Source of the DNA: a virus
Lineage: Duplodnaviria > Heunggongvirae > Uroviricota > Caudoviricetes
Length of the DNA: 64,000 bases
Reading direction: 5' to 3' (one strand)
IMG/VR virus record: IMGVR_UViG_2740892229_000011
In this document: piece by piece, positions 5,333 through 58,218 of the stretch
How the letters are laid out: each line of letters begins with the position of its first letter
Numbering within the stretch: position 1 is the first letter of the stretch
Program-made: the position numbers and the translations under genes
Notes under the pieces: model-generated
The model's input: the letters and a program-made list of their open reading frames with translations, nothing else
Databases searched by the model: none
Told to the model about the DNA's origin: nothing

Positions 5333-5333
5333 T

Positions 5334-5733: not shown

Positions 5734-5957
5734 GGCGATGATTGATGAGTGGTCTCAGTTTACCTTTTATCCTAAAGATGGCATCTTCACTCATATACAC
5801 GCCTGTTCACTCAAGCTCATGTTGAATCATTTAGTAATTTGATGTAGATTTATTAGGCATCCACGTAAGTGGGCACATACAGGCTACGCATCCTCGTAGC
5901 CTTCAACCCCGAGAGGGGTGCCGCAATGACACTTGTGTTAACGGCTAAGGTGGACAC

Positions 5958-21522: not shown

Positions 21523-21597
21523 GATGGTGTAGCTCAGCGGTAGAGCAGTTGGCTGTTAACCAACTGGTCGGTGGTTCGAATCCACCCACCATCGCCA
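21523..21597 (+). tRNA. tRNA-Asn (anticodon GTT)
   Basis: Manual fold: acceptor gatggtg/caccatc, D-arm 'agctcagcggtagagc', anticodon arm gttgg-CTGTTAA-ccaac, T-arm ggtgg-ttcgaat-ccacc, 3' CCA encoded. Confidence 0.7.
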
Positions 21598-21602
21598 ATT
21601 TA

Positions 21603-21689
21603 GGGGAGTTAGTCCGTAGGGGCAGCGGGGTAGACTGTAAATCTACTGTCATTGCGACTCGGGTGGTTCGACTCCATCACTCCCCACCA
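21603..21689 (+). tRNA. tRNA-Tyr (anticodon GTA), long variable arm
   Basis: Acceptor ggggagt/actcccc, anticodon arm gtaga-CTGTAAA-tctac, long variable arm, T-loop 'ttcgact', CCA encoded. Confidence 0.6.
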
Positions 21690-21693
21690 AATT

Positions 21694-21769
21694 GCCGGTT
21701 TAGCTCAGTTGGTAGAGCGCCTGCCTTGTAAGCAGGATGTCAGCGGTTCGATCCCGTTAACCGGCACCA
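21694..21769 (+). tRNA. tRNA-Thr (anticodon TGT)
   Basis: Acceptor gccggtt/aaccggc, D-arm 'agctcagttggtagagc', anticodon arm cctgc-CTTGTAA-gcagg, T-loop 'ttcgatc', CCA encoded. Confidence 0.7.
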
Positions 21770-22089
21770 ACACAACAGGTAAGAGCATTGGGCGAATCGG
21801 CGATACTGACCCACAAGCCCGTAAATCGATAGAGTCAGACCAGTGCTCTTACCGTTGTGAGGAAGTGCAGCTCTTTGAAGCAACCAGAAGATAAGCATCT
21901 GGCTTCACAACACAACGATAAGATCATTACGGTTAATCGTCGTTCATGTGCACAATGACTGGTCGAAAGGTAGTGATCTTACCGTTGTGATGAATGCACA
22001 GGCTGATGTGCCGCAACTACAGTAGTGCGCGCTTTGCGGGGCTTGCTACAACCCTGTGTCGGAGTTCAGCACCGACCATCACAATAGCT

Positions 22090-22176
22090 GGAGAGTAGGG
22101 AGCATGGTGCTCAAGCGGTCTTGAAATCCGTCCCATTGTGCAAACGATGATGGTTCGATTCCATTACTCTCCGCCA
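22090..22176 (+). tRNA. Probable tRNA-Ser (anticodon TGA), long variable arm
   Basis: Acceptor ggagagt/actctcc, anticodon loop 'cttgaaa', T-arm gatgg-ttcgatt-ccatt, 3' gCCA; D-arm and anticodon stem pair imperfectly, so less certain. Confidence 0.45.
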
Positions 22177-25247: not shown

Positions 25248-27356
25248 ATGTCTAAAAAACGTTCCATCAAAGAGGTTCAGGACTTCCGTGACAGTGTAAA
25301 ACGAGTAGTCGCTCTCCTTTCAGGTAAAAACATCCCTGTTGCAGAACGAGGGGACGACGCTTATGTATGCTATAACGATGATGGAGAGCCAATTCTCGTA
25401 AACATCCCATCAATCCCGGATAACGCAACACCGGCATTGATGAATGCTGTGCGCGGATTTCTCGATCATGAGGTTGCTCACATTTTGTTTACCGATATTC
25501 GTGTGTCCAACAAAATGAGAGAAAAAGGACGCGTTCCTTCCTGGTCGCTATGGAATGCCTTAGAAGACGTGTTCATCGAGCGAAAAATGGGTCAGGTCTT
25601 TAACGGAACAAGACGTAATCTGATGGCAACTCAGCGCCTTATAATCGAAAAAGTCTTTAAACCAAAGGCTTCAGAGGCTATTGCTTATTGTGGCAAAGAT
25701 CAGCGCGCGCTTTTTCTAAACTTCTTTCTCTGTCCGGTTGTAAGAGCCTGGGATGGCCAAGCACCGTTCGTAGATTTCATGGATGAATATTGGCCTGTCA
25801 TTGAGAAACCAATTTCATTATTAAAAGAACATGGTATCGATGTGGCCGTGCGTAACATGTCTTGCACCGAGGATTGTGTAAAGGTGGCTGCGACCATAGC
25901 TAAGATCCTCAAAGACACTGAAAGTGAAAGCAAAGGTAAGGAGTCAGCTCCGGGAAAAACTTCCGATCCTTCAGACGCTGAACAGACGGATGCCTCTGGA
26001 GAAAACAATGAAGATAACGAAGATCATGAGACACCCTCAGCGTTAGATAATCACAAATCTATCAAATCAGAATCACACAGTAAGCACAAACATGATAATA
26101 ACGACGGTGATGATTCAGATAATTCTGAATCATCAGAAACAATATTCGATGATACAGAAAATGATAAAGAGGTATCAGATTCTGATGCTTCTGATAACGC
26201 GGTGTCAGAATCATTTACCGCTGACCACGAAAAAAGAAAAACGACAGAAGACGGCTCTTCAGATATCCCAACTCCGTCAAAAATGAGTCTGGAAGAGGCT
26301 TTAGAGGAGCTGGATAGCATAGAAGATGAAGTCGGAGGCATGACAGAAGATGCTCTATCCGAAACGATTAAAAGCGAGTTAACAGAAAGCTCGAAAAGCG
26401 AATACAGGCCATACAATCGCTCATACGACTTCATCGGCTCGATTGATCAGGCAGAAGCCCATATCAAACGGCTTATTAAAACATTCTCCGATATTGATTT
26501 AGGAGGATATCCAATCAGCCGCTATCGCATCGTTCCTGAAGGCAACCAGCTCTTCGACAAATATATTGAAAAGCATCTTTCGTCAGGTGTTTCGTCGACG
26601 CTGGCAAAAGACCTGGAGCGAGCAATAGCAAGCAGAAACAGAGTTCAGTTTATACCGGGCCAGCGTCGGGGGCGCATTCATGGTTCTAGTATCTACAGAT
26701 TAGCAATGAATGATGATCGCGTGTTTCGTAAAAAAGAAGAATCTAAAGCCGTTAACGCCTGTGTTCAACAAGTGATTGATTTATCAGGTTCAATGAGTGG
26801 TATAACGATACAATTGGCTCTTGCAAGTGCATATACCATCGCCGATGCCCTTGATCGAATAAATGTTCCCAACATTATCACCGGCTTCACTACATTTGGT
26901 AGTCATATGGCGGCAGGAGAACTTAAGGCTGTCAAGTATGAGTTCTCTCGCTTTGAATCTTTAATGCTACCTATCATCAAAAATTGGAATGAAAAGGTAA
27001 ATTCTCGCGAAGTTCGCTCACGTATGGGGTGCGTAGGCTACACATTCCCACTTCTTAATAACGTGGATGGTGAAAGCATAGCCAGCCTTGCATCGTTATT
27101 TTCCGGTCGCATGGAGGACAGGAAGATCATGCTTGTTCTGAGTGATGGCGCGCCGTGGGCTGTTGGGAGAGGTTTTGACGCTCATTTGCGTTCGGTTGCG
27201 AAGCAAATTGAAACGCAGACTGACATTGATTTGATGGCAATTGGCATCATGACTGACGCACCGGAGAGATTTTACTCAAATCATGCCCTGGTAACGAGCG
27301 TTGATAGTCTTGGTTCATCTGTAGTTACTGAACTATCTCGTATCATTTTGAAGTGA
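25248..27356 (+). CDS. CobT-like protein with C-terminal von Willebrand A (MIDAS) domain and long acidic linker
   Basis: 702 aa; MIDAS motif 'VIDLSGSMSG'; highly acidic Ser/Asp/Glu tract in the middle; paired with the downstream AAA ATPase. Confidence 0.6.
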   Translation: MSKKRSIKEVQDFRDSVKRVVALLSGKNIPVAERGDDAYVCYNDDGEPILVNIPSIPDNATPALMNAVRGFLDHEVAHILFTDIRVSNKMREKGRVPSWSLWNALEDVFIERKMGQVFNGTRRNLMATQRLIIEKVFKPKASEAIAYCGKDQRALFLNFFLCPVVRAWDGQAPFVDFMDEYWPVIEKPISLLKEHGIDVAVRNMSCTEDCVKVAATIAKILKDTESESKGKESAPGKTSDPSDAEQTDASGENNEDNEDHETPSALDNHKSIKSESHSKHKHDNNDGDDSDNSESSETIFDDTENDKEVSDSDASDNAVSESFTADHEKRKTTEDGSSDIPTPSKMSLEEALEELDSIEDEVGGMTEDALSETIKSELTESSKSEYRPYNRSYDFIGSIDQAEAHIKRLIKTFSDIDLGGYPISRYRIVPEGNQLFDKYIEKHLSSGVSSTLAKDLERAIASRNRVQFIPGQRRGRIHGSSIYRLAMNDDRVFRKKEESKAVNACVQQVIDLSGSMSGITIQLALASAYTIADALDRINVPNIITGFTTFGSHMAAGELKAVKYEFSRFESLMLPIIKNWNEKVNSREVRSRMGCVGYTFPLLNNVDGESIASLASLFSGRMEDRKIMLVLSDGAPWAVGRGFDAHLRSVAKQIETQTDIDLMAIGIMTDAPERFYSNHALVTSVDSLGSSVVTELSRIILK

Positions 27357-27451
27357 ATAAAACAGCCTTAATGATAAGTAACCACTTACGATAGTTAATG
27401 GTATATTTATATAAGAAGTTGAACGCTCATTAGAGAACAAAGGAAAAACGC

Positions 27452-28687
27452 ATGACGACTACTGCACTGCAAAATGAAAAAAATCATTCTGATTACCTTG
27501 TTTGCAAGTGGTGCGGCAAATCATTTCACTATTTTAAGTCCCATGTAGCCAATGGTAATTGCGAGGGCATTCCTGAGTCAGTAAAAGATGCCGATCCTGA
27601 CACCGTACTGAAAATGTACACAACGCAGTTTCCAGATGAGCCAACGCTATCGAAAAAGGCACTTGATGCAATTCAAGCTAAACGTGCCGAGCAAAAAAGC
27701 GAAATGGCCAAATCTTCTGGCTTGACCAGTAGCCCTGGCTACACAGGCACAGTTGAGTACAAGACAGATCTGGTCGCAGCTCACGAACTGCTAAACGTAA
27801 CGGTGGAAGAACTCGGAACAAAACGTGGGACGCCGCTCATGGTTAGCGTCAACGTCAATACGCCGTATCCAGAGTTCGTTCCAGAAGTGAAGAAGGGCTA
27901 CGTATATGGCGACTTCGAACTGATCAAAGATATTTTCATGATGCTTGAACTTGGCATACCTGGCTATTTGTGGGGTCATGCAGGAACAGGCAAATCGTCA
28001 TTGCCTACACAGCTATGTGCTTTGCTCAATCGTCCGTTGATCCGTGCCCAACATACAGCATCAATGGAAGAGGCACATGTTACGGGGCAAATTCTGGCGC
28101 GTGATGGCTCTACGTATTTCGAGCCTGGCTTGCTTGCGCTCGCAATGAAGCATGGCTGGGTTTACCTCGCGGATGAATACGACTTTGCGTTTCCACAGAT
28201 TCTTGGCGTGTATCAGCCAGTGCTGGAAGGTGAAGCGTTGGTCATCAAAGAGGCGACTCCAGAATGGCGTCGCATTACTCCGCATGAACGGTTTGCTTTC
28301 ATTGGCACTGGCAACACGAACGGATCTGGTGATGAAACCGGCTTGTACCAGGGTACAAACATCCAGAACGCCGCGAACTTTTCGCGTTTTGGCATCGTTT
28401 CGAATGTGAAATACATGAGCAAAGAGGCAGAGATCAACATGTTGATAAATGCCGGTATCGTGGGTGAATACGCAGAAAAGATGGTTAAGTTTGCCGGTAT
28501 CGTTCGCGATGGATACGAAGAACACCTTATCAGTCAGCCAATTGGCCCTCGTGAACTTTTGTTGTCGGCCAAGATTGGAATGATGCGAGGCGACTTTGTG
28601 ACAGGTATTGAGCGTTCTTTCATTAACAAACTCCCTTCAGCTTCTGCACAAGCGGCTCGTGAAGTTGTTCAAAAAATATTTGGTTGA
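27452..28687 (+). CDS. CobS-like / MoxR-type AAA+ ATPase with N-terminal zinc ribbon
   Basis: 'CKWCGKSFHYFKSHVANGNC' zinc ribbon; Walker A 'GHAGTGKSS'; Walker B 'VYLADEYDF'. Confidence 0.65.
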   Translation: MTTTALQNEKNHSDYLVCKWCGKSFHYFKSHVANGNCEGIPESVKDADPDTVLKMYTTQFPDEPTLSKKALDAIQAKRAEQKSEMAKSSGLTSSPGYTGTVEYKTDLVAAHELLNVTVEELGTKRGTPLMVSVNVNTPYPEFVPEVKKGYVYGDFELIKDIFMMLELGIPGYLWGHAGTGKSSLPTQLCALLNRPLIRAQHTASMEEAHVTGQILARDGSTYFEPGLLALAMKHGWVYLADEYDFAFPQILGVYQPVLEGEALVIKEATPEWRRITPHERFAFIGTGNTNGSGDETGLYQGTNIQNAANFSRFGIVSNVKYMSKEAEINMLINAGIVGEYAEKMVKFAGIVRDGYEEHLISQPIGPRELLLSAKIGMMRGDFVTGIERSFINKLPSASAQAAREVVQKIFG

Positions 28688-31800: not shown

Positions 31801-32386
31801 CATAGATGCAGTTAAAGCCTCACGTCCGTTTGAGATGAACCCCAAACGTTCGGCTGAGATTAACGTGCTCATGACACGGATGGCGGCTGAAATGGGCTTA
31901 GGTGATGAACTAATCCGCCCCAGCATTGGTATTAAGCCGAAAATCATGATCATTCTGGACAATGCAAACGGCAATGATGCTCGAACCGGTTACTTCATGG
32001 AGAACGGATACGACGATTTTAAGGCCAAGCTGTTGACGGCTGGAGATTTGCGCATGGGCGATCTGTATGTCACAGGCGTTTGCAAAAAGGTGAAAGACAA
32101 AGAAAAGGACTACACCAAAGACGAGATCGGCCAGTTCACCGACTTTATGCGTGAAGAGATCAATCTGGTACGTCCGACCTATGTGCTGACGTGTGGCAGT
32201 CGGGCAACGGCATTGTTTAACAACAAAAACAAGCCATCCGATTTAGTCGGTAGGAAGGAGTATCTTCCAGACCTTGACGTTACAGTCTTTTACGGGTTTA
32301 ACCCCAACATTCTTTACTTCAGACCTGAAGAGGGAGAACGACTAGAAGCGATATTAGCCGACGTAGCAGAAACTATTAAGTCGTGA
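28868..32386 (+). CDS. DNA polymerase III alpha-like (DnaE-family) replicative polymerase with N-terminal PHP domain
   Basis: 1172 aa; PHP-like N-terminus 'MVRTDFSLGESALKAENAVKIAREAGYTAV'; palm region 'GLIKLDVLGLATLDLL' characteristic of the C-family polymerase core. Confidence 0.75.
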   Translation: MKALMVRTDFSLGESALKAENAVKIAREAGYTAVISADSMNIASVIPLQRAAGDDMAVICGVKLNIVDDPTYEHRAKLAKESKGCMESLERGRNYSFTALIKNEKGYRDICELMTAANTREQFYFVPRLSLEQLVSTYAKGNIILLTSDIGSVFQRNDFAKIISTLITAGGKDNFYSVVYPHPTPFYDQINVRAMKVASALKIEPVAFYPAYYESIDDADIKDIAHMVTNNIKIDQPHRLRIPHQRDNAVNGRRHLLEALKAFSVRMDVPVTAAMASTTQDTIIDACTWRWHELPPALPKMADDEPATLMKLAVAGLRKRLTTKEFGYTPPASENRVYVERLKYEMDTLTRLGFCGYFLMVRDLMNHSRETGIPVGPGRGSSAGSLVAWCIGITNVDPIRHGLLFERFINPERLDLPDADLDFSQARRHEVIEYLNERYGEDYVAGIPNFTYLGAASALRDTARIYGVESADMAVSKELRNVEDDSLPLEELREQLASLDKYATKYPDAFNAACKLQSLMRGFGRHAAGMIVAGVPLTERTPVERRGDARCIAFDKRYCEAMGLIKLDVLGLATLDLLDSAKRYIKENTGEDINLDAISLEDRKVLDGFAAGYTQGVFQLESGPMRKLLKDLGGGIEPMSFKTVVATTALFRPGPIQSGMLDDYVSVAKGFMTPESLHPVLDELTAETNGVILYQEQTMNATRLLAGFTMAEADGVRKAIGKKDMEKMKSMGEKFIVQAQAGWIDVELEDGTTQRIHRAEHFKCEDGTLKTVEEALEFGAKLPINAVRVTASHPGLSEMKAKEIWTAFEKNGAYQFNKSHSVAYSLISYQSMWLKTHYPAEFFAAALTILGEDKHQGLVKDALTYGIRVLPPDVNVSSNRIEIRTLEDGSQVLYAPFSAVKGCSENGCQAIMRAREKVGGKFESLAQFEEAVEKRACNSRVRESLQKVGAFASIEPGSLPATDPERLRDQAELMGNLVIDAVKASRPFEMNPKRSAEINVLMTRMAAEMGLGDELIRPSIGIKPKIMIILDNANGNDARTGYFMENGYDDFKAKLLTAGDLRMGDLYVTGVCKKVKDKEKDYTKDEIGQFTDFMREEINLVRPTYVLTCGSRATALFNNKNKPSDLVGRKEYLPDLDVTVFYGFNPNILYFRPEEGERLEAILADVAETIKS

Positions 32387-32511
32387 TCCAATAAACATGG
32401 CCTCTATGGCCATGTTTTCTCTTATCCCCTCATATCCCCTATCCTCGAACTCCTTGCCTTATCATCACAATGATATAATCAATATAAGATGATAAGTAAA
32501 AAGGAAAGCAC

Positions 32512-32943
32512 ATGATCACCGATATTTACGAGAAAATAATGTCTGATCTCGAGTTTGACCGAGACAATCTGGAGGAAGTCTGGCGTAGACAACCCCGCCT
32601 TTTAATGGAGTATGGCTCAAAACTCGCTCATGCAGAAAGAAGTGTCGCAGAGGCAAAACTTAACCTTGAAGCTGTTGAAGCAAAGCTATACGACACAGAG
32701 CGTAAGAACTTGAGTATGAACGGCATTAAGTTCAACGAGTCTGTACTGGACGCTAAGGTTAAAACAAACCCACAGTATCTATCTAAACGTCAGAAGTTGG
32801 ATGACGCACGGCACATAGCAGACATATACAAACATGCTGTCGCCGCCTTTTCGCATCGCCGAGACATGATCGTTCAGGCGTCGAAGATGGCCATTGTTGA
32901 ATTAGAGCGATTAGGCTCCGAACGCTTTATTACTCCCCGTTGA
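32512..32943 (+). CDS. Hypothetical coiled-coil protein
   Basis: 143-aa ORF, helical/charged composition. Confidence 0.4.
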   Translation: MITDIYEKIMSDLEFDRDNLEEVWRRQPRLLMEYGSKLAHAERSVAEAKLNLEAVEAKLYDTERKNLSMNGIKFNESVLDAKVKTNPQYLSKRQKLDDARHIADIYKHAVAAFSHRRDMIVQASKMAIVELERLGSERFITPR

Positions 32944-33060: not shown

Positions 33061-34089
33061 ATGTCTAAGACATTACTTGATTTGCTTAACAAAACTCGTG
33101 AAGACATTGCCGCCAAACGTGGTAACAACGTTGATCTGACTCGCTTAAAAGACGGCGTCAACTATATCCGCATCTTCCCGAATAAAGACGACCCAAACGG
33201 TAAGTTCTTCCAGACTTTCGGTATGCACTACGTTAAGTATCAGAACGAGGAAGGTAAAGAAGCAACCAACGCTTATATTTGTGAGCAACATACTCACGGT
33301 CGCGCTTGTCAGCTATGCGAAATGGTGATGGAAGGTCGCGCTCGTCACAAGGGTAACAAAGCAATGGAAGAACGCATCGGTCAAATGCGTGCCACTCCTC
33401 GCTACCTGGTCAACGGCATTCTTTCTGCTCGTGAGGATTTCGCAGATGCTGAGAAATGCCAGTTAATCGAGCTGCCGTCTACTGTATTCGATGATATCTG
33501 CAAAGCAATCACCGAAGACATCGCTGATGATATCGGCAATCCACTGAGCAAAGAGGAAGGCTACGCATTCCTGATTAAACGTACTGGCTCTGGTCGCGAT
33601 ACCAAATATGACGTCTCGCCTAAGCGTAAAGTCTACAAAGGCGATATCGAAGATAAATTCTGGAACACCCAGCATGATCTGATCGCATACGCAAATCAGG
33701 CTGATGAAACTCGTCTTCTGTCGACAGTTCGCACTATGGGTCGTCTGATTGGCATCGCTGCACCAACTGCCGCAGCATCTGCACCAGCAATATCCTCAAC
33801 CGCGAAAACATCGGCTGCGGCACTACCTGGATTTGGCTCTGTCACTGGTCATACAGAAGGAGCGACGGCTGTAGCAACCGCGCACACACCGGCTTCTGAA
33901 CCAACCAGTCTGGTTGATGAAGAAATCCTCCGTGCCGTTGAAACTGAATTTAAACCAGAGGCAAGTTCCGCTGCCGTTGCCGTATCAGTCAAAGAGTCTG
34001 AAGCAGTCGCAGCGACATCTGTAGCAACCGCATCTGCGACGGAAGATGAAGGTCTGGATGACCTACTGAGAGAGCTGGACTCTCTGTAA
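33061..34089 (+). CDS. gp32-like single-stranded DNA-binding protein
   Basis: 'IRIFPNKDDPNGKFF', a Cys/His cluster 'YICEQHTHGRACQLCE', and an acidic C-terminal tail 'EDEGLDDLLRELDSL' parallel the T4 gp32 layout as recalled. Confidence 0.55.
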   Translation: MSKTLLDLLNKTREDIAAKRGNNVDLTRLKDGVNYIRIFPNKDDPNGKFFQTFGMHYVKYQNEEGKEATNAYICEQHTHGRACQLCEMVMEGRARHKGNKAMEERIGQMRATPRYLVNGILSAREDFADAEKCQLIELPSTVFDDICKAITEDIADDIGNPLSKEEGYAFLIKRTGSGRDTKYDVSPKRKVYKGDIEDKFWNTQHDLIAYANQADETRLLSTVRTMGRLIGIAAPTAAASAPAISSTAKTSAAALPGFGSVTGHTEGATAVATAHTPASEPTSLVDEEILRAVETEFKPEASSAAVAVSVKESEAVAATSVATASATEDEGLDDLLRELDSL

Positions 34090-34105
34090 TCCCATTACGT
34101 GACCA

Positions 34106-34134
34106 GTAAGGCGTCTACGGACGCCTTACTTTTT
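34106..34134 (+). terminator. Rho-independent terminator after SSB gene
   Basis: 'gtaaggcgtctacggacgccttac' hairpin followed by 'ttttt'. Confidence 0.55.
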
Positions 34135-34149
34135 GGAAGGAATGTACCG

Positions 34150-35094
34150 GTGAATTATCTCTTCGTAGATGGCAATAGCCTGGGTTATTACCACCAACAA
34201 TCTGACAAATTGCACAACGGCGAAATGGAAGTACAGGCTGCTTTCGGCTTTGTTAAGAACGTCCGTCGTTATGCCTCCATCCTCCATGCCCGACCTATGA
34301 TTCTTTGGGATGGATTTAGTGACAAGCGTCGCGACTTTTACCCGGACTACAAAGCAAATCGCGACGACGATCCTGATATGAAAAAGATGAAGGAAGGCTT
34401 TGCTATCCAGAAGCCATACATCCTCAAAATGATGACCGCGCTTGGAGTTACCCAACTCATTGCAAAAGATGCAGAAGCGGATGATCTGGCCGGGCTGCTG
34501 GTATCCCGCATGGCACCGCAGCCAACCGTTGAACACATCTATCTGTTAACAGGCGATAGCGACTGGCTTCAGTTAGTTCGTGAAAACGTAAGCTGGGTAA
34601 GCCTGCGTGAAGACGCCAAAAACAAGCAGGTTAATTTTGAGCAATTTGCGGAGCTGACAGGATTCGCCACGCCTCGCGCATTTTTGGAAGCAAAAGCATT
34701 ACAAGGCGATAACTCGGACAACATTAGCGGTGTTGGTGGCATTGGTGCTGGCGGTGCGAAAGAGCTGCTGCATGAATGGGGAAGTGTCGCAACGATGGTA
34801 CGCGGCATCAACGACGGCTCAATCGTGGTTAATAAAGGGCGTCATAAGACCGCCTTCAACAAACTAGCGAAGAATGCCTTCAACGAGAAAACAGGCTGTC
34901 GAATGCTCGAAGCGTTCAAGAGAAACATCACGCTAATGAACCTGATTGAGACGAAGTTTCCGCCTACCGAAATCGAAACAATCAAAGGCAATCGTGACGT
35001 GAAAGCATTCGAGCAACTGTGCTACGAGCTGAATTTCCGTTCGTTCCTTGAAGACCTTGAAGTGTTTGTTCTTCCATTCGAAAGGTATTGCTAA
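34150..35094 (+). CDS. 5'-3' exonuclease / flap endonuclease (RNase H-like fold)
   Basis: 'LFVDGNSLGYY', 'YKANRDDDP', 'DAEADDLAG', 'LLTGDSDWLQLV' match 5'-nuclease family motifs. The listed ORF starts at GTG 34099 inside the upstream terminator, so GTG 34150 is preferred. Confidence 0.7.
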   Translation: MNYLFVDGNSLGYYHQQSDKLHNGEMEVQAAFGFVKNVRRYASILHARPMILWDGFSDKRRDFYPDYKANRDDDPDMKKMKEGFAIQKPYILKMMTALGVTQLIAKDAEADDLAGLLVSRMAPQPTVEHIYLLTGDSDWLQLVRENVSWVSLREDAKNKQVNFEQFAELTGFATPRAFLEAKALQGDNSDNISGVGGIGAGGAKELLHEWGSVATMVRGINDGSIVVNKGRHKTAFNKLAKNAFNEKTGCRMLEAFKRNITLMNLIETKFPPTEIETIKGNRDVKAFEQLCYELNFRSFLEDLEVFVLPFERYC

Positions 35095-35360
35095 TGCTTA
35101 AATCGATTATCAATGGCGCTACAACCACCCCTGCCCAACTGGCAAAAGAGATTGTCTTTTATCACGGTGAGTACGCTGTCATCGCACTGCCGTCAATTCT
35201 AGGCGCTGCCGGAATGAAAGCGACAGATCGCGAGTTTGGATTAGTCAGCGAGCAGGTCGTAAAAATCCTCGCTCGTGTATCCAGACTCCTTAACCACGAT
35301 GCGATTGTATTCGATGAATCCGCCGCTTTAAAACGAATCAACGAAACAAAAGGAGCCTGA
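35088..35360 (+). CDS. Hypothetical protein
   Basis: 90-aa ORF between nuclease and recA. Confidence 0.35.
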   Translation: MLMLKSIINGATTTPAQLAKEIVFYHGEYAVIALPSILGAAGMKATDREFGLVSEQVVKILARVSRLLNHDAIVFDESAALKRINETKGA

Positions 35361-35362: not shown

Positions 35363-37702
35363 ATGGCAAAAGGAAAATCCGCACTGGCACTTGCTCTGAA
35401 AAAGAAAATCGGTAGCAACGACGAAATTCAGAAAGTAACTCATTGGATTGATACAGGCTTTCCACCGTTAAACAAAGCTATTTCTGGTCGTTACGATGGC
35501 GGCTTCCCATGTGGTCGTATCGTCGAAGTATTCGGTCCTCCAAGTGCAGGGAAATGTGTTACCGCAGACACCATGCTGCTGACGGAGCGTGGAATGGTAA
35601 CAGTGAAAGAGTTGTTTGAGATTGAAGGGTACAAAGCGACATGCACTACTCGCGATGTAGAGCATAACGTTGGACTCATCAATGAAAATGGCGTGATAGA
35701 GAAGACCTCACACCTGACATGGAACAACCGTCGCAAATTCAAGCGTATTAAGCTGGCATCAGGCGGTTATATCGAGGCTACGTTCCGTCACCCAATCCGT
35801 GTGGTTGACGACTTAGGTAATGTCGTCTGGCGACATGCTGAAAAAATCAGTGTAGGCGACACGATTCCTTCAATGGTTGGCACACATCAATTCGGCGATC
35901 AGCACCTGGATGCCAATATCGCAAAACTGATGGGCTATTTAATTGCTGACGGATACGTGGCCTCTGAAAATTCAGTGAATTTTTCTAACACAGATCCTTT
36001 CATCAAGGATGAGTACTACCGCCTCATTTCGCTGGTATCAGACAAGATGCCAGTTACGAGAAAACATAACGGCTCGGAAGACCATGTGCTGTTTAGCAAA
36101 GAGGTGCGTTCGCTGCTTTTTAAAGAATATGGTCTGGAGTATGAGAAAGCTGCTGGCAAGCAGGTTCCGTTGAGTGTGCGTCGCGCCAATAGCGAGGCTC
36201 AAATTGCATTCCTTCGCGGCTACTTTGAGCTGGAATGCCACGTCAATGATGGTCGCTGCATTGAGGTTGTGAGCGCGAGTGGGCTGCTGCTACAGCAAAT
36301 TCGCCTCATGCTCCTGAATCTGGGGATTACGTCAACTATCTCTGAAAAACACGTCGCGGGTTATGAAAATACATATTACCGGCTGTCATTCAGTGGCTCT
36401 AATTACGACCTTTTTCTGTCAACGATTGGTTTCGAATCTCCGGCACGTTTATCAGTGGCAACCAAACGGGACATTGGTTTTGACCGCACTTACTCAGGCT
36501 ATGTTCCGCACATCAGCGGCTTAGTGAAATCACTCTACGAGTCGCTCACCAAGACCACCCGTGAAGACTACGCTCTGGTAGACCACGTTATTGGCCGCGG
36601 CGATCGTGTCGGAATAGACAAACTGCGAGAAATCTATGTCTCCTTCATTGGCAGAAAGAATCGTTTTAACGAGCATCTGTTTGCACAACTGGCAGCGGTA
36701 ATTGGCTCTAACTTGTTCTACGACGAAGTCGTGGCTATTGAGGAAGGTGAAGCACCAACGTTCGACGTAGCGATGCCGGAAACACACTCTTTCTGGTCTA
36801 ACGGGATTATCAGCCACAACACATTCCTTGCAACAGCAGCGATGATCTCCGCTCAAAAACAAGATGGTCTGGCGGTATTCCTCGATCATGAAAACAGTTT
36901 TGACGTTGGCCTGGCTGTAGCCAATGGCCTGAACGCAGATGAGGATGACGGTCAGTGGGTATACAAGCAGCCAGATACCTTCGAAGACTCTGTAGAGTTG
37001 ATCGGCACAATACTTAAATTGGTTCGTGATGAAGAGCTTATCCCCGAATCAGCACCTATCTGTATCGTGGCTGACTCACTTGCGTCTATGGTTCCGAACT
37101 CCAAAGCCGAGAAGTTCGAAAAGATGGCTGAAGGCACTGCCAAAGACAAAGATCAGCTAAACATGAACGACAATACGGCACTGGCTCGTGCGACAAGTGC
37201 GAACTTCCCTACTCTGGCTTTGTGGGCACGCAAATACAACGCCTGCATCATCTTCTTGAATCAGGTTCGCACAAAAATCGGTGTAATGTTTGGCGACCCT
37301 ACTACGTCGCCAGGTGGAGATTCACCGAAGTTCTACGCTTCTGTACGTATCCGTCTTGGTGCATCGGTGATGAAGGATGGTAAAGAGAAGATCGGCCAGG
37401 ACGTAGGCGCAGAATGCATCAAAAACAAAGTTGCACCACCGTATGGCAAATGCACCTGGAAATTCTACTTCGATCCTACTCGTGGCCTCGACGTTATCGA
37501 ATCGCTCGTCGAGTACATGCTGGAAGAAGGATACCTGCCAAAGAACGCCAGCGGGCGAGTTGAAATTGGTGACAAGAAATACACCAAATCGCAGATCGTC
37601 GAGATGTATCGGGAGAAGCCACTGGCTGAAATCATTGCGGCTTTGCAGGCAATCGACGACCGAAGAGCAAAAGACAACCCCACCGAGTCAGTAGAAGAGT
37701 AA
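35363..37702 (+). CDS. recA: RecA-family recombinase interrupted by an in-frame intein
   Basis: N-extein ends with P-loop 'GPPSAGK'; C-extein contains RecA signatures 'IIFLNQVRTKIGVMFGDPTTSPGGDSPKFYASVRIRLG'; exteins total about 357 aa, the size of a RecA. Confidence 0.8.
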   Translation: MAKGKSALALALKKKIGSNDEIQKVTHWIDTGFPPLNKAISGRYDGGFPCGRIVEVFGPPSAGKCVTADTMLLTERGMVTVKELFEIEGYKATCTTRDVEHNVGLINENGVIEKTSHLTWNNRRKFKRIKLASGGYIEATFRHPIRVVDDLGNVVWRHAEKISVGDTIPSMVGTHQFGDQHLDANIAKLMGYLIADGYVASENSVNFSNTDPFIKDEYYRLISLVSDKMPVTRKHNGSEDHVLFSKEVRSLLFKEYGLEYEKAAGKQVPLSVRRANSEAQIAFLRGYFELECHVNDGRCIEVVSASGLLLQQIRLMLLNLGITSTISEKHVAGYENTYYRLSFSGSNYDLFLSTIGFESPARLSVATKRDIGFDRTYSGYVPHISGLVKSLYESLTKTTREDYALVDHVIGRGDRVGIDKLREIYVSFIGRKNRFNEHLFAQLAAVIGSNLFYDEVVAIEEGEAPTFDVAMPETHSFWSNGIISHNTFLATAAMISAQKQDGLAVFLDHENSFDVGLAVANGLNADEDDGQWVYKQPDTFEDSVELIGTILKLVRDEELIPESAPICIVADSLASMVPNSKAEKFEKMAEGTAKDKDQLNMNDNTALARATSANFPTLALWARKYNACIIFLNQVRTKIGVMFGDPTTSPGGDSPKFYASVRIRLGASVMKDGKEKIGQDVGAECIKNKVAPPYGKCTWKFYFDPTRGLDVIESLVEYMLEEGYLPKNASGRVEIGDKKYTKSQIVEMYREKPLAEIIAALQAIDDRRAKDNPTESVEE
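35555..36820 (+). other. Intein (about 422 aa) with LAGLIDADG homing-endonuclease domain, inserted in the RecA P-loop
   Basis: Begins with Cys ('K|CVTADTMLL'), ends 'IISHN' followed by Thr (+1); LAGLIDADG-type blocks 'LMGYLIADGYV' and 'FLRGYFELECHV'. Confidence 0.7.
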
Positions 37703-43334: not shown

Positions 43335-44420
43335 ATGACTTTGCCATACGGCGTCATTTCTGACTGCCACTACCACAAATGGGATGCGTTCTCCACGACG
43401 AACGCTGAGGGGCTTAACTCCAGACTTGAAATACAGTTGGAAGCAACGAAAGAAGCAGCCATCGCCATGAAGAAGGCCGGTTGTAAGTACATGTTGGTTG
43501 CCGGTGATACATTTCACGTCCGAGGAACTGTGTCCCCTTCTGTTTTGCATTACGTAACTGAAACGTACAAGTGGATTATCAACGAGCTTGATCTGACAGT
43601 AGTAATGCTGGCCGGTAATCACGATCTTGAAACCAACGATTCAGTATATAGCGCCAACGCAGCAGCATCGCTGAGTTCTATCGGCGTGGTAATCGTATGT
43701 GGCAAGCGCCCACACTCAATAAAAATTGGTGATGTGACTGTCCACCTGATTAGCTGGCGTAACAATCATGCGGAGCTTATCAGCGATCTGAAAGCATTAC
43801 GTAAGAGCGTAGAAGGTGATAATCATGACGTTGTTATCCATACATCCATTAACAAAGCCATTCCAACAATGCCTGACGTCGGTATCGATGCGCAGGAGTT
43901 AAAGGATATCGGCTTTCGTCTCGTGCTTAGTGGGCATTACCACAACCACAAAGAGGTCATTCCTGGAGTTATCAGTGTCGGTGCACTGACTCATCAAAAT
44001 TGGGGAGATGTTGGATCTCTGGCTGGCTACATGATCGTAAACCCGGACGGCAGTTTCAGTCACTACGAAACCAGTGCGCCTAAATTCATTAACCTGGAAG
44101 ATGATGTTGCTGATGACCAAATTCGCGGCAACTACGTGCGTTTCCGCGCCGTAATTGAGAACGATGAAGAAGGCATTAAGTACCAGAACATCCTCAAAAC
44201 AATGGGTGCAAAAGGTGTCGTGTGCAACTTCATCCGTAAGTCATCAATGATGGAAGGGACAGCCAGCACAACTGAAACCAGCAAAATCGATAGCCTGGGA
44301 GAGTCGGTATCTGCTTATTGCAAGATTGTCCACGATACTGACGGCGGATTTGATCTGAGCAAATTGGATATTTTGTGTCAGGAAATCCTCACCGAAGCGG
44401 AGAGTTCGGAGGCTGTGTGA
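43335..44420 (+). CDS. sbcD: SbcD / Mre11-like nuclease (calcineurin-like phosphoesterase)
   Basis: Metallophosphoesterase motifs 'SDCHYH', 'VAGDTFH', 'LAGNHD', 'SGHYHNH'. Confidence 0.7.
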   Translation: MTLPYGVISDCHYHKWDAFSTTNAEGLNSRLEIQLEATKEAAIAMKKAGCKYMLVAGDTFHVRGTVSPSVLHYVTETYKWIINELDLTVVMLAGNHDLETNDSVYSANAAASLSSIGVVIVCGKRPHSIKIGDVTVHLISWRNNHAELISDLKALRKSVEGDNHDVVIHTSINKAIPTMPDVGIDAQELKDIGFRLVLSGHYHNHKEVIPGVISVGALTHQNWGDVGSLAGYMIVNPDGSFSHYETSAPKFINLEDDVADDQIRGNYVRFRAVIENDEEGIKYQNILKTMGAKGVVCNFIRKSSMMEGTASTTETSKIDSLGESVSAYCKIVHDTDGGFDLSKLDILCQEILTEAESSEAV

Positions 44421-44653
44421 AGCAAAGTCGTTATGGGAGCTTTCGAGACTTTGCCATCACGATGAAAAGACTTGAACGAGGCCAGACGGTGATGTTTCAC
44501 AAGCCCTACCCGCCACAAGGAAATCCCGTAGCGTTTTATCTTGGAAGGTTAACAAGAAAAGGCGTATTGAGGCGCAGATCCTTCCCGGCGCATACGGAGT
44601 TCAGATTGAAAGAAGGCCAAAAGCTAACACACGGTATCAGAGGTGTTATATGA
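44417..44653 (+). CDS. Small basic hypothetical protein between sbcD and sbcC
   Basis: In-frame GTG at about 44417 after 'ggagg'; the listed ORF 44375..44653 overlaps the sbcD 3' end. Confidence 0.25.
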   Translation: MKQSRYGSFRDFAITMKRLERGQTVMFHKPYPPQGNPVAFYLGRLTRKGVLRRRSFPAHTEFRLKEGQKLTHGIRGVI

Positions 44654-46566
44654 AGTTTTTAAAGCTCCAGGTTGAGAATTTTATGGCTATCGCCAGCGCG
44701 GAGGTCGAGTTAGATCAGCGTGGTTTAGTGCTCATTCAGGGTGTTAATAGTGATGATAGTTCCGCATCAAGTAATGGCTCTGGAAAGTCAACTCTAATGA
44801 ATAGCCTGATGTGGTGTCTTTATGGCGAAACAGCTCATGGTGTGAAGGGTGACGATGTGTTGTCTACCGACCATGAAAAGAACTGTCGTGTTGCAGTAAC
44901 CATCGAGGATGAAGGCAAGAGATACGCAATCATTCGTCACCGTAAACACAAAGAGTTCAAAAATCGTCTTATCGTTCGTGGTGAAGATGGCGATATGACG
45001 AAAGGCAAAGATGCGCTGACGCAGGAGTTCGTCGAGCGTCTGATCGGTGCATCTAAAGAGGTTTTCATGGCTTCCATCTATGCGAGCCAAGAAGCTATGC
45101 CAGATTTACCTGGAATGTCCGACAAAAACCTCAAAACCATCGTAGAAGAAGCCGCTGGCGTTGACAGACTGACACGCGCCTACGCTATTGCTTGTGAGCG
45201 AGCTAATGCAGCTGCCGCACGTATGGATGTGGTTAAAACCAAATTGGAGTCGACAATCTCGACCATTGAGGCAACACAGTCAGAAATTGAGTCAGCGAAA
45301 GCCTCCTCTGAATCATGGGAGCAAGAGCGTTTTAAACGTTATGACGATGCCCTGGCTGGGCTGGCCAGTGCCGAAGTTGAGTTAACGGAAGTTGAACTTG
45401 AGATCCGCACTCTGCCCGAACAGATACGTGATACCGAGAAGGCAATCGAAAGTGAGCGCAAAAAGTTAGCCTCAAAAGAAGAACATGACGCCAAGTTGCT
45501 CAAAGTTCGTGGTGCGATAACTGATATTCGGGCAAGCATCAAAGCTACAGAAAATAGTCAGGCTGATGCAATGAACCGCGCGCGTAATTTTAAGACCAAA
45601 GCAGAAGAGGTTGGTACTAAAGTGGGATCACCATGCCCTACTTGTGGCAAAGCCTACTGCGAAGAAGATCTATCAACGGTGAAGGAGAATTTCATTGAAC
45701 AAGCACGACAGGAAATTGGTCAGGCGAAGACACTTGCAGAGGCAATGGCTAAACACAAAACGAATCTTGAGAAAGCGTTAAGCATTGAGTCTGCCCTTGT
45801 TAAAACGACACCTGATGTAACGGCTATCATTGCCCGGATTGAAGAGCTTACGAAACAACTCTCATCTTTGCGTCATCGTGAGAAGGAGGTTGTTGCTATT
45901 GAGTCTCTTGTGACTCGTGCTCGTACTGAGGTCGATCGTATATCAAAAGAGATTAATCCGTTTATTGCTCTTATCGCCAGACACGAAAATAACTTGGTAT
46001 CCAGTAAGTCTACCTTCAAGTCCTTAAAAGATGAGTTGAAGGCTATTCAGGAACAAACGTTGCTATTGGAAAAAGCTCGTCAGGTCTACTCTCCTGCCGG
46101 GGTGCGTTCTCATATTTTGACGTCTGTTACGCCTTTCCTGAATACACGCACTGCCGAGTATCTCAATACGTTGTCTGACGGGAATATTACTGCTGAGTGG
46201 TCGACGATGGATGTCACTAAAAAAGGTGAGTATCGCGACAAATTCAACATTAGTGTGCAGAAGAAAGGTTCAAGTAAGTCGTTCCAAACCCTCTCTGGTG
46301 GTGAGAAGCGGAAGGTTCGCATTGCGTGTTCTTTGGCATTGCAGGATCTGGTTAGTAACCGGGCGAGTAAAAACATCGATTTGTTTATCGGCGACGAAAT
46401 TGACGATGCACTCGATACAGCCGGTCTTGAACGCCTCATGGGTATTCTGGAGTCCAAAGCTCGCGAGCGAGGTACTGTGCTGATTATCTCCCATAAAGAG
46501 ATGAAGTCATGGTTCCGGGAAACTATTACGCTGGAAGTTAAAGAGGGGCGCAGCTATGTCGTTTAA
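44650..46566 (+). CDS. sbcC: SbcC / Rad50-like ATPase with zinc hook
   Basis: Walker A 'NGSGKSTLMN', central coiled coil with 'CPTCG' zinc hook, C-terminal signature 'LSGGEKRKVRIACSLAL' and Walker B 'LFIGDEIDDALD'. Confidence 0.75.
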   Translation: MKFLKLQVENFMAIASAEVELDQRGLVLIQGVNSDDSSASSNGSGKSTLMNSLMWCLYGETAHGVKGDDVLSTDHEKNCRVAVTIEDEGKRYAIIRHRKHKEFKNRLIVRGEDGDMTKGKDALTQEFVERLIGASKEVFMASIYASQEAMPDLPGMSDKNLKTIVEEAAGVDRLTRAYAIACERANAAAARMDVVKTKLESTISTIEATQSEIESAKASSESWEQERFKRYDDALAGLASAEVELTEVELEIRTLPEQIRDTEKAIESERKKLASKEEHDAKLLKVRGAITDIRASIKATENSQADAMNRARNFKTKAEEVGTKVGSPCPTCGKAYCEEDLSTVKENFIEQARQEIGQAKTLAEAMAKHKTNLEKALSIESALVKTTPDVTAIIARIEELTKQLSSLRHREKEVVAIESLVTRARTEVDRISKEINPFIALIARHENNLVSSKSTFKSLKDELKAIQEQTLLLEKARQVYSPAGVRSHILTSVTPFLNTRTAEYLNTLSDGNITAEWSTMDVTKKGEYRDKFNISVQKKGSSKSFQTLSGGEKRKVRIACSLALQDLVSNRASKNIDLFIGDEIDDALDTAGLERLMGILESKARERGTVLIISHKEMKSWFRETITLEVKEGRSYVV

Positions 46567-56472: not shown

Positions 56473-57282
56473 ATGAGTTCGGTTGAAAATGTAATGACAA
56501 ATGATGATCTGGATGAGCTGACAGCCATGTTGCAATCACTTGATGAACCAGTAAAAAAAGCTGCACAGGTTGAAAATACTGATGATATTGACGATCTGCT
56601 TCTCGGCCTCGATGCTGGCGTAGCCATGAGTTCTGATGATGTTGCCGAAGAACTGTTCAATGAAGAAAAAGCAGGTGATTTCAGCTCCGCTTTAAATGAG
56701 TTGGAGTTAGCTCATGAGCCTATAAACGTAATTAAGGCTGAAAGTGTTGAATCTGCCGAAAACGAGCCAGAACAATTGGGATTTATTGAGGTTGAAGAGT
56801 GTGTTGAGGTTAATGATGAATTAAAAGTTCAACAGTCAAATGATAGCAATACAAATAAAATAGCTCGTACTGCAAGAGGTCCTCGTTTTACTTTAAGTGA
56901 TAAAGATGATTTGTTTTTCAATAAAGCAGGCTTAGAAAAAGATATTTTCTTAGACGCTTACGAAAACGCGCCTGTCAAAGCAAAGGATAAGATATTAAAC
57001 CTTCTTAATTGGTTTAGCGGAGGTCCAGATATTAGTGTTTACACGGTAATTTCCATGAGACACCTTCTCACAGAAAAGAAGGCTACAAGTAATAGTATTA
57101 AGATTGCTTTAATGAGCAATCCAGAAAAACCGTATCCGCTTAACACTGCGTCAACTCAGGCTGGGCAAATGATGGCTGTATTTCCAGCTACAGGAATTGC
57201 TGTTAGAGACGGTGGAAATCTAACATTGAACGAAGAATCACCGATCGTTAAGAAGTTTGTCGCGGAGTACACTATTGGATGA
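56473..57282 (+). CDS. Hypothetical acidic protein
   Basis: 269-aa ORF with a strongly acidic N-terminal half. Confidence 0.4.
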   Translation: MSSVENVMTNDDLDELTAMLQSLDEPVKKAAQVENTDDIDDLLLGLDAGVAMSSDDVAEELFNEEKAGDFSSALNELELAHEPINVIKAESVESAENEPEQLGFIEVEECVEVNDELKVQQSNDSNTNKIARTARGPRFTLSDKDDLFFNKAGLEKDIFLDAYENAPVKAKDKILNLLNWFSGGPDISVYTVISMRHLLTEKKATSNSIKIALMSNPEKPYPLNTASTQAGQMMAVFPATGIAVRDGGNLTLNEESPIVKKFVAEYTIG

Positions 57283-57464
57283 CGTTCCCCTACTGAAAAT
57301 AAAGCCCATAGAGAGCTTTATAGTGCTGGGTAAGCTAACCCATACCCAGCACCACAAAAACGCGCCAGAGAGCTTCTTGTTCGCATTTCTGGCGCGTTTT
57401 ATTTTATTGCCATACATAAAATCAAATGCAAAAATAGGTAATCACTTACCTACCGAGAAAGAAG

Positions 57465-58058
57465 ATGATTGCAGCCGAAAAAATCAAACAGCGAAAGCGC
57501 GACAACTCTCTTCGTGACCTCTGGAGAACACCTGATTGGCTGTTTTCTGCCATTCAACGTTATCTTGGAGTGACATTTGATGTTGACGTTGCCTGCAACA
57601 AGGACAATGCAAAGCTGCCTATTTTCATAGGCGTTGAGCGCGATGCTTTGAAATCTGAATGGGGGCAGCCAGGTACAATTGCCTTCCTCAATCCACCCTA
57701 CTCCAAAATCTCCCCCTGGATTGATGCGGCTATACGTGAGCAGGCTCGCGGAGTTACAACAGTGATGCTAATTCCTCAATCCCTCGATACAAAGTGGTAT
57801 GAGCGTGCAACAGAGTGTGCGAATGAGACGATTATTCTGTCTGGTGGCCGCGTAGCGTTTGTCGAGCCTGACGTCAATTTGGGTCAGGTAGAAGTAAACA
57901 TCAACCCCGGTGGCAGTATGCTCGTTGTTTTTCGAGGATTCTGTCAGGACGCTGGGCACTCTATAAGCAAGATCCCTTTGGACGTCATGAAAAGTCTGGG
58001 AGGGTATGATCCTGCGAATGTGATCAGGAAAAAAAGACCATCAAAGAAGGCTGCTTAG
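57465..58058 (+). CDS. Phage-type DNA N6-adenine methyltransferase (Dam-like)
   Basis: 'FLNPPYSKISPWIDAA' (NPPY catalytic motif); 197 aa. Confidence 0.7.
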   Translation: MIAAEKIKQRKRDNSLRDLWRTPDWLFSAIQRYLGVTFDVDVACNKDNAKLPIFIGVERDALKSEWGQPGTIAFLNPPYSKISPWIDAAIREQARGVTTVMLIPQSLDTKWYERATECANETIILSGGRVAFVEPDVNLGQVEVNINPGGSMLVVFRGFCQDAGHSISKIPLDVMKSLGGYDPANVIRKKRPSKKAA

Positions 58059-58080
58059 TTTGTTCTGGCGTCTGTAATTA

Positions 58081-58150
58081 GCCTGCTTCTGTATATAAAT
58101 AACTACATATTAATTATTAATATACGGAAGCAGGCTGTTTTATATCAGAG
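58081..58150 (+). terminator. Long AT-loop hairpin (terminator-like); second copy of the element at 10038-10095
   Basis: 'gcctgcttctgtatata...tatacggaagcaggc' then 'tgtttt'; near-identical stem sequence at 10038-10091. Confidence 0.5.
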
Positions 58151-58218
58151 ACTCCCAGACCTGAACACCACTACAGAATCCACTAGAACCCCTTCCCAGA
58201 CGCTTTAAAATCGATTTT

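Follow-up and report, generated by a model that had tools for sequence, protein, structure and literature searches.

The reading frame at 35363..37702 (+) of the window, by which we mean the whole 64,000-nucleotide stretch analyzed, raises the question of what a segment of some 422 residues is doing within the P-loop of a RecA-like protein, and how it came to lie there. We find it very probable that an SSU5-type phage-plasmid has here the gene for its RecA-like strand-exchange protein, and that a class 1 LAGLIDADG intein has invaded this gene at the point where the Walker A Lys is followed by Thr.

Anatomy and setting of the interrupted recombinase gene

The frame runs from an ATG start through to a stop and encodes a 779-aa intein-containing precursor, which PHROG 9666 matches over its full length. 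In Pfam searches the precursor matched RecA (3.3e-36), LAGLIDADG_3 (2.4e-17) and Intein_splicing (2.1e-11), all above their gathering scores; the RecA match falls in two separate stretches, the second at residues 484-703. The N-extein (aa 1-64; 35363..35554, +) closes on GPPSAGK, whose Lys is that of Walker A. The insert (aa 65-486, 1266 nt; 35555..36820, +) opens with CVTADT, its first residue being Cys1, and closes with IISHN, whose last two residues are His421-Asn422. The C-extein (aa 487-779 plus stop; 36821..37702, +) opens with the Thr+1 codon ACA, continues with FLATAAM, and carries the RecA core through IIFLNQVRTKIGVMFGDP and KFYASVRIRLG. A sequence-only reading had described an insertion of about 422 residues at 35555-36820 that starts with Cys, ends in His-Asn and is followed by Thr, and our residues and coordinates agree with it. 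Its placing of the insertion between the Walker A Lys and Thr is likewise borne out by alignment, where GPPSAGK/T, the slash marking the insertion point, lies opposite GPESSGK/T of E. coli RecA.

Excising exactly nt 35555-36820 restores the Walker A motif GPPSAGK/T. The resulting protein of 357 aa agrees at 357/357 residues with an allele that naturally has no intein, that of Escherichia phage CMS-2020a; the excised gene differs from that allele at 6 of 1074 nt, with 100% nucleotide identity in the N-extein and 99.3% in the C-extein. SSU5 and further relatives also lack the insert, and the comparison with intein-free alleles that had been proposed from the sequence finds precise counterparts in close relatives. 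The intein shows no compositional anomaly by GC (0.482, against 0.486 in the exteins). The anatomy of the element, its sequence hallmarks and its precise presence/absence polymorphism are shown here.

The exteins had been called RecA-like, and both the divided Pfam match and alignment to RecA structures uphold this. The Pfam match to PF00154 (RecA) scores 125.5 bits against a cut-off of 27. The spliced protein aligns with RecA through GPxSxGKT, IVVDS/IVADS and FINQxRxKIGVMFG, so that Walker A, Walker B and the L1/L2 region of the core are all represented, and it matches solved RecA structures at E-values of 1e-30 to 1e-35. Its score of 153.7 bits against the bacterial RecA equivalog TIGR02012 lies below the cut-off of 325.3. 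Judged by these profile scores, the host gene is a diverged phage-plasmid RecA-like protein and not an equivalog of bacterial RecA. Because PHROG names the family 'UvsX-like', we also considered orthology with UvsX or with RadA, and rejected both: in the extein alignment that the sequence-only reading had suggested, bacterial RecA is far closer (1e-31 to 1e-35) than UvsX (1e-5 to 1e-10) or RadA.

The precursor gene is 100% identical to positions 56798-59137 of the E. coli plasmid NZ_CP027358.1, an SSU5-like phage-plasmid. Directly upstream of it lies a 90-aa ORF (35088-35360, +), preceded by genes for a 5'-3' exonuclease (34099-35094, +; Pfam 5_3_exonuc_N / 5_3_exonuc) and a gp32-like single-stranded DNA-binding protein (33061-34089, +; Pfam gp32, 1.7e-66). 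The order of these recombination and replication neighbors (33061..35360) is the same in Cyrano, in SSU5 and in the plasmids. The intein-bearing recombinase gave no match on the chromosomes of 5426 complete E. coli genomes, and we reject an invasion of chromosomal recA on the same count; the gene belongs to an SSU5-like phage-plasmid rather than to the chromosome. A search of the literature on inteins together with SSU5, phage-plasmids or UvsX found no paper tying the E. coli RecA intein to phage-plasmids. Two other ORFs of the window, DnaE with 1172 aa and NrdA with 771 aa, have about the usual length for such proteins, and on length a further intein is not suspected in them.

Splicing and endonuclease features of the insert

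The N-terminal splicing (HINT) region spans intein residues ~1-112 (35555..35890, +), where the AlphaFold2 (AF2) model places beta-strands at residues 7-107 and where TIGR01445 (intein_Nterm) scores 35.5 bits against a cut-off of 24.5 over protein residues 65-147. It holds block A, which is Cys1, and block B, T76-x-x-H79 (35780-35791, +), lying in an ATxxHPxRV context conserved in relatives; the N-terminal nucleophile and block B of a class 1 intein are thus both present, as Cys1 and T76-F-R-H79. The C-terminal splicing region (36710..36820, +) comprises blocks F and G, PTFDVAMPETHSFWSNG-IISHN, and is conserved in all complete relatives, as is the SHN/T junction at which GIISHN meets Thr. PF14890 (intein splicing) scores 44.3 bits against a cut-off of 35.8, and in sequence searches residues 379-422 match the DnaB mini-intein 4o1r. 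The catalytic set of Cys1, T76xxH79, block F, His421-Asn422 and Thr+1 is complete.

Between the splicing regions lies a LAGLIDADG homing-endonuclease domain with a helical linker (intein residues ~113-385; 35891..36709, +), supported by Pfam, sequence and structural matches; PF14528 (LAGLIDADG_3) scores 63.4 bits against a cut-off of 22.5 over protein residues 279-356. The two LAGLIDADG blocks that the sequence-only reading had picked out are LMGYLIADGY (residues 125-134; 35927-35956, +) and FLRGYFELECH (residues 219-229; 36209-36241, +). Each carries an intact acidic residue, D132 and E227 respectively, the latter aligned with the second-motif Asp of the TliVMA intein; the endonuclease region aligns in sequence with that intein (7qsu/7qss) and with PI-PkoII. 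The fold predicted here for the intein (AF2; pLDDT 82, pTM 0.86; C-terminal strands at 387-406) resembles that of solved inteins that carry an endonuclease: the top Foldseek matches of the model are the TliVMA, PI-PfuI, PI-PkoII and PI-SceI inteins, the best being 7qss (E 6e-21, TM 0.68), and further matches include inteins 1dq3, 2cw7, 1vde and 4e2t and the homing endonuclease I-DmoI. The matches to PI-PfuI, PI-PkoII and I-DmoI agree with a pseudo-dimeric alpha-beta fold for the endonuclease. A word-indexed homologue search found 13 relatives of the intein.

From these residues and this fold we infer that the intein both splices and cleaves DNA; our literature search found no published experiment on either activity for the E. 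coli RecA intein. The unspliced 779-aa precursor would be unable to form the P-loop. Splicing would begin with an N-S acyl shift at Cys1; the thioester would be attacked by Thr+1, a weaker nucleophile than Cys or Ser; cyclization of Asn422 would release the intein; and an O-N shift would remake GPPSAGK-T in an active 357-aa recombinase.

Distribution and homing signature

Among the 5426 complete E. coli genomes, 249 have the recombinase gene, always on plasmids, and 120 of these 249 carry the intein, which is thus missing from about half of the E. coli gene carriers and present in ~2% of complete E. coli genomes; it is common in Klebsiella and Enterobacter plasmids. Inteins from elements of E. 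coli, Klebsiella, Enterobacter and Salmonella share 96.8-100% identity, whereas among elements with a near-identical intein the exteins and neighboring genes are 73-84% identical (exteins 78-84%). Synonymous divergence (dS) stands at 0.09 for the intein and at 1.4-2.3 for the exteins, and in a comparison of Klebsiella with Enterobacter the inteins are a single nucleotide apart while the exteins have a dS of 1.22. The 13-15 amino-acid changes seen in the intein include none in the splicing or LAGLIDADG blocks. Its dN/dS is 0.15, a value for the entire intein with no split by domain, and that of the exteins is ~0.01. Most of the extein divergence is older than the invasion, so the purifying selection seen there is not in itself proof that an active recombinase still comes from invaded alleles.

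At the junction, GGGAAA/ACA is found in 7/7 intein-bearing alleles, while 7/7 intein-free alleles have ACG or ACC and 0/7 have ACA; the intein-free junction of CMS-2020a is GGTCCTCCAAGTGCAGGGAAA/ACGTTCCTTGCAACAGCAGCG. The boundaries of transfer lie within ~10 nt of the intein ends. On this evidence the intein looks mobile, and the population pattern shown here bears the mark of its horizontal transfer. In principle such a segment could also be moved, with no endonuclease at work, by general recombination between phage-plasmids, but this would not account for transfer tracts that end a few nucleotides from the intein borders. We propose instead that the free 422-aa intein acts as a site-specific endonuclease on the P-loop coding sequence of intein-free alleles. 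When two related phage-plasmids meet in one cell, the break would be repaired off the intein-bearing copy and the intein copied in, with a very short co-conversion tract. As an example of intein homing from nature the data are unusually clean: inteins that hardly differ sit in exteins saturated at synonymous sites, and the co-conversion tracts measure a few nucleotides.

The intein might instead keep its splicing activity with an inactive endonuclease, at a late stage of the homing cycle, and persist by vertical inheritance and ordinary phage-plasmid recombination. At this RecA site the distantly related P0007, P0012 and P0013 have lost LAGLIDADG motif 1, so endonuclease decay does happen in this intein lineage. 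In the present element, however, both motifs with D132 and E227 are intact and dN/dS is 0.15 over the whole intein; these features, together with the near-identity of inteins within saturated exteins and the tight transfer boundaries, are what recent endonuclease-driven homing would predict, and we regard a dead endonuclease as unlikely.

A second alternative is that the intein is kept for conditional splicing, as a post-translational switch on the recombinase responding to temperature, redox, DNA damage or lytic/lysogenic state. The insertion point is shared with the Pyrococcus horikoshii (Pho) RadA intein, where, according to the 2015 survey cited below, native exteins gate splicing, and the intermediate frequency of the intein in a recombination gene would fit such a role. 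The same survey describes the RadA and RecA-c2 inteins as independent invasions with little similarity (PMC4513877), the sequence data are silent on conditionality, and selfish mobility fully explains both the presence/absence polymorphism and the homing signature. We therefore give this reading a low probability, and find quite improbable its specific form in which the intein holds the recombinase off during plasmid carriage until induction, stress or co-infection sets it free; if that were true, repair of the endonuclease-made break would depend on a recombinase gated by the very intein being copied.

That the intein cannot splice, leaving the recombinase inactivated, the ORF a mere vehicle for the endonuclease and the phage-plasmid dependent on host RecA, would suit the frequent RefSeq label 'LAGLIDADG family homing endonuclease' for the whole CDS and the many E. 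coli elements without an intein, but it is highly improbable given that the canonical splicing residues are all conserved in every allele examined, that the ORF is intact in 6/6 complete intein-bearing alleles read, that 237 PLSDB records span at least 80% of the gene and the exact 779-aa protein occurs on at least 1000 contigs, and that a truly decayed copy, in E. albertii with an IS911 insertion and an intein 94% identical, looks different.

Relationship to known inteins

Endonuclease-driven homing of a splicing intein remains our preferred account, and the element itself is a confirmed known intein rather than a discovery. Table 1 of the survey by Topilina, Novikova, Stanger, Banavali & Belfort (2015, Nucleic Acids Res 43:6631, PMC4513877) lists a RecA intein c2 (65-486), with hosts including E. 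coli (MS 145-7, 2780750 and others), Enterobacter and Salmonella, where insertion point c of RecA/RadA is the P-loop. The site and coordinates are identical to those of the insert at 35555-36820, and on that listing the two are the same element; the gene on the MS 145-7 plasmid NZ_CP146657.1 is 99.4% identical to ours and its intein 100% identical in nucleotides. The novelty that the sequence-only reading had implied for the P-loop site does not hold, and our finding mainly confirms an intein that could be recognized from the raw sequence. Some RefSeq records, too, name the gene "intein-containing recombinase RecA". In a paper that the survey's group published afterwards, inteins are said to be apparently missing from E. 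coli and Salmonella. The survey's entries on c2 mention neither a location on phage-plasmids nor the polymorphism nor signs of homing; the setting on phage-plasmids and the homing signature are what the present analysis adds, and the "first E. coli intein" really belongs to SSU5-like phage-plasmids. As a tractable E. coli element in which alleles with and without the intein are closely matched, it is well suited to tests of homing and of conditional splicing within a mesophilic host that is its own.

The RadA intein of P. horikoshii (c1; PDB 4e2t, 2lqm) is described in the survey as occupying 'precisely the same insertion point' in the P-loop; its C-extein also opens with Thr (TQLAHTLAVM), and its conditional, extein-gated splicing has been demonstrated experimentally (PMC4513877). 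Our predicted model matches its HINT fold over ~125 columns (Foldseek E 3.5e-5). The Pho RadA intein is a mini-intein without an endonuclease from a hyperthermophilic archaeon, whereas the E. coli intein bears one.

The RecA inteins of Mycobacterium tuberculosis and M. leprae likewise interrupt a RecA-family recombinase, and that of M. tuberculosis bears the LAGLIDADG endonuclease PI-MtuI. Their host gene is chromosomal recA, in contrast to the phage-plasmid gene studied here. The sequence-only reading had correctly placed them elsewhere in the protein: the survey's site listing puts them at a (residues 252-691) and b (near 205-211), at the monomer-monomer interface and not in the P-loop (PMC4513877). 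We rejected an intein of the mycobacterial type on this difference in site and on NF007072, the NCBIfam model made from that type, which matched the exteins alone (100.8 bits against a cut-off of 1024).

The same split of the Walker A motif between Lys and Thr is found in the 'classic' P-loop inteins of the RFC small subunit, aIF2, DnaB-b, MCM-a, mycobacteriophage TerL1-a and V-ATPase (PMC5050341, PMC4760082). These lie in other host proteins and are 15-22% identical to the E. coli intein over structural alignments. Among NCBIfam intein-containing models the closest are those of RFC-S (E 1.6e-22) and IF-2 (E 9.3e-21), and the nearest solved structure is that of the Thermococcus V-ATPase intein, 7qss.

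A RecA-like precursor divided within its P-loop

The open reading frame at 35363-37702 (+ strand) runs from ATG to stop and encodes a precursor of 779 residues, in which nt 35555-36820 (+; residues 65-486) form an insert of 422 residues. The 64-residue N-extein terminates in GPPSAGK, and the insert runs from a Cys (residue 65) to a His-Asn pair (residues 485-486) with Thr directly after it, exactly as the sequence-only reading had described; that observation is confirmed, and its interpretation as RecA-like exteins split by an endonuclease-bearing intein is supported. The Pfam matches to the precursor, all three of which exceed their gathering scores, are RecA (3.3e-36, in two separate stretches), LAGLIDADG_3 (2.4e-17) and Intein_splicing (2.1e-11). 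In PHROGs the precursor is matched over its full length by phrog_9666, 'unknown function', and the exteins match phrog_97, 'UvsX-like recombinase'. The insert holds the complete set of canonical intein elements: the block A nucleophile Cys1 (CVTADT), block B (T76-x-x-H79, inside ATFRHPIRV), the two LAGLIDADG motifs already recognized by eye (LMGYLIADGY, acidic residue D132; FLRGYFELECH, acidic residue E227), blocks F and G (PTFDVAMPETHSFWSNG-IISHN) and the +1 nucleophile Thr+1, the first residue of the C-extein.

By sequence alignment the endonuclease region matches the Thermococcus V-ATPase intein (7qsu/7qss, 8e-8), PI-PkoII (2e-7) and also PI-PfuI; the C-terminal splicing region finds its match in a DnaB mini-intein. 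An AlphaFold2 model of the intein, made from a small alignment of relatives (mean pLDDT 82, pTM 0.86), predicts a helical middle and ends rich in beta structure; Foldseek searches of the PDB with this model give 7qss as the best match (E 6e-21, TM 0.68), together with PI-PfuI, PI-PkoII and PI-SceI, followed by mini-inteins including that of Pho RadA and then by I-DmoI. Known inteins are matched by both sequence and modeled fold, and the insert is predicted to be an intein with a homing endonuclease.

The insertion is precise: removal of nt 35555-36820 yields a protein identical at 357/357 residues to that of the intein-free, 1074-nt allele of Escherichia phage CMS-2020a. The two genes differ at 6/1074 nucleotide positions, one of which lies in the Thr+1 codon (ACA in the window, ACG in CMS-2020a). 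The insert is also absent from the alleles of Salmonella phage SSU5 and Klebsiella phage vB_Kpn_1825-KPC53. Alignment of the deduced spliced protein with E. coli RecA (GRIVEVFGPPSAGKTFL vs GRIVEIYGPESSGKTTL) places the intein between the residues aligning with the Walker A Lys and Thr, as first proposed; we take these to be K72 and T73 of E. coli RecA by standard numbering. Against solved structures the spliced protein is closest to RecA (1e-30 to 1e-35), then UvsX (1e-5 to 1e-10), with RadA and RadB matching more weakly than either. It scores 153.7 bits with TIGR02012, below the equivalog cut-off of 325.3, and belongs to the RecA family as a diverged member.

Anatomy, predicted fold, site, polymorphism and transfer signature are shown by the analysis; the remainder of our model is extrapolated from the established class 1 intein pathway. 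Splicing would proceed by an N-S acyl shift at Lys64-Cys65, transesterification onto Thr487, cyclization of Asn486 and an O-N shift that restores GPPSAGKT. With 422 residues between the two halves of its P-loop, the unspliced precursor is expected to have neither ATPase nor strand-exchange activity.

The phage-plasmid setting

The RecA-like gene belongs to a phage-plasmid and is not the chromosomal recA. It is 100% identical to its counterpart on the non-mobilizable 110-kb plasmid NZ_CP027358.1 from E. coli 2013C-4991, and 98.4-98.7% identical to those of Escherichia phages PhiR41_1 and Cyrano; Salmonella phage SSU5 and Klebsiella phage-plasmids give weaker matches, to the exteins only. The gene was found in 249/5426 complete E. 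coli genomes and is plasmid-borne in every copy.

The flanking genes form an SSU5-type block for replication and recombination. The RecA-like gene is preceded by DNA polymerase III alpha, a small protein (named UvsY-like in the Cyrano record), a gp32-like SSB, a 5'-3' exonuclease and a 90-aa ORF, and followed by an SPFH protein, RepB, an SbcCD-like pair, NrdAB, ThyA and DHFR. The pair (43335-46566, +) consists of a metallophosphoesterase, as RefSeq labels it on the identical plasmid, and then a 638-aa SMC/SbcC/Rad50-like ATPase; it resembles a break-processing pair of the SbcCD/Mre11-Rad50 type and shares its element with the intein-bearing recombinase. Cyrano carries a hicA/hicB toxin-antitoxin pair between its dnaE and UvsY-like genes (positions 1048-1896 of its locus). 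The corresponding site in the window (about 32386-32512) spans only some 125 nt, so that close relatives differ in the presence of this pair.

Elsewhere in the window, four tRNA genes (Asn-GTT, Tyr-GTA, Thr-TGT and Ser-TGA) cluster at 21523-22176 (+), where no CDS is listed; Rfam confirmed three of the four, and the Ser gene was called by ARAGORN only. A CobT/CobS-like pair at 25248-28687 (+) comprises a 702-aa ORF with CobT and CobT_C (VWA) domains, which PLSDB omits from its gene table for the identical plasmid, and then a 411-aa AAA_5 (dynein-related) ATPase. A 931-aa tail-fibre protein (262-3057, +) combines a phage fibre repeat with a Gp34-type trimerisation domain and, at its C terminus, an S74 intramolecular chaperone domain.

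Distribution and signature of homing

PLSDB has the gene on 736 plasmids and the intein on 248 (Escherichia 123, Klebsiella 71, Enterobacter 41, Citrobacter 6 and a few others), with an identity of at least 93.9% for every copy; 120 of the 249 gene-bearing complete E. coli genomes carry the intein. Nucleotide comparison of Klebsiella, Enterobacter and Salmonella plasmids with the window gives identities of 80-83% for the upstream exonuclease gene, 73-75% for the 90-aa ORF, 78-82% for the N-extein and 82-84% for the C-extein, against 96.8-97.0% for the intein. The corresponding dS is 1.4-2.3 (saturated) for the exteins and 0.09 for the intein; between Klebsiella and Enterobacter the inteins are 1 nt apart and the exteins have a dS of 1.22. 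The intein has a dN/dS of 0.15, and all of its 13-15 amino-acid differences lie outside the splicing and LAGLIDADG blocks.

One intein-bearing and one intein-free Klebsiella allele have nearly identical exteins, their sole differences near the junction being GCG GGG AAA/ACA with the intein and GCT GGT AAA/ACC without it (the slash marks the insertion site). Across 14 alleles compared, the junction is GGGAAA/ACATTCCT in 7/7 with the intein, and the Thr codon is ACG or ACC in 7/7 without it, a pattern predicted by gene conversion that an endonuclease initiates and whose co-conversion tracts are very short. These comparisons suggest that the intein is, or very recently was, mobile. The window allele itself looks like a recent invasion of a CMS-2020a-type allele; its N-extein is identical to that of CMS-2020a and the junction has changed from ACG to ACA. 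The free intein should cleave intein-free alleles once two related phage-plasmids share one cell.

Decayed copies of the intein gene were found on E. albertii plasmid NZ_CP034165.1 (locus positions 2809-5756) and on CP059946.1 (60873-62917). In the former the intein is 94% identical and is followed downstream, roughly at the expected continuation of the C-extein, by an IS911-family transposase gene (locus 4588-5756); the C-extein aligns over 65% only, and the annotation shows no intact CDS there. In the latter the intein match is broken in two and spans about 780 additional bases, which probably represent an insertion. Our homologue search also recovered inteins 27-45% identical at the same GK/C...SHN/T site of other RecA proteins in metagenomes and genomes, one on a 550-kb contig whose host RecA has the C-terminal RecA domain. 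LAGLIDADG motif 1 is missing from three of them (P0007, P0012 and P0013; 27-37% identical), the one on the 550-kb contig included, a sign that their endonucleases have decayed. The lineage thus extends beyond the enterobacterial phage-plasmid allele and includes members with degenerate endonucleases.

Relation to described inteins

RadA and RecA inteins were surveyed by Topilina, Novikova, Stanger, Banavali and Belfort (2015, NAR 43:6631; PMC4513877). That survey defines five insertion points, of which point c lies in the P-loop (c1, archaeal RadA including Pho RadA; c2, bacterial RecA), and its Table 1 places eight E. coli strains, two Enterobacter and one Salmonella under 'c2 (65-486)'. These coordinates are identical to those of the window intein, and a plasmid of the listed strain MS 145-7 (NZ_CP146657.1) carries the intein at 100% nucleotide identity; the element is therefore already known. 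The exact precursor is present on at least 1000 contigs. RefSeq names for the CDS are 'LAGLIDADG family homing endonuclease', 'hint domain-containing protein' and 'recombinase RecA', with 'intein-containing recombinase RecA' used in Enterobacter, Citrobacter and Kluyvera records. A later paper from the same group states that E. coli and Salmonella appear to have no inteins (PMC5050341), in conflict with the c2 entries for both in the survey, and so the enterobacterial intein seems little known. In the literature searched, its phage-plasmid location, its ~50% occupancy in E. coli carriers and its homing signature are apparently unreported, and no splicing or cleavage experiment on the RecA-c2 intein was found. 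Beyond confirmation, our analysis offers a tidy addendum to its natural history and a convenient experimental system. Insertion between the P-loop Lys and Thr has been called 'classic' for inteins (PMC5050341; PMC4760082), and the NCBIfam intein-bearing models nearest to the precursor, archaeal RFC small subunit and IF-2, are both P-loop hosts.
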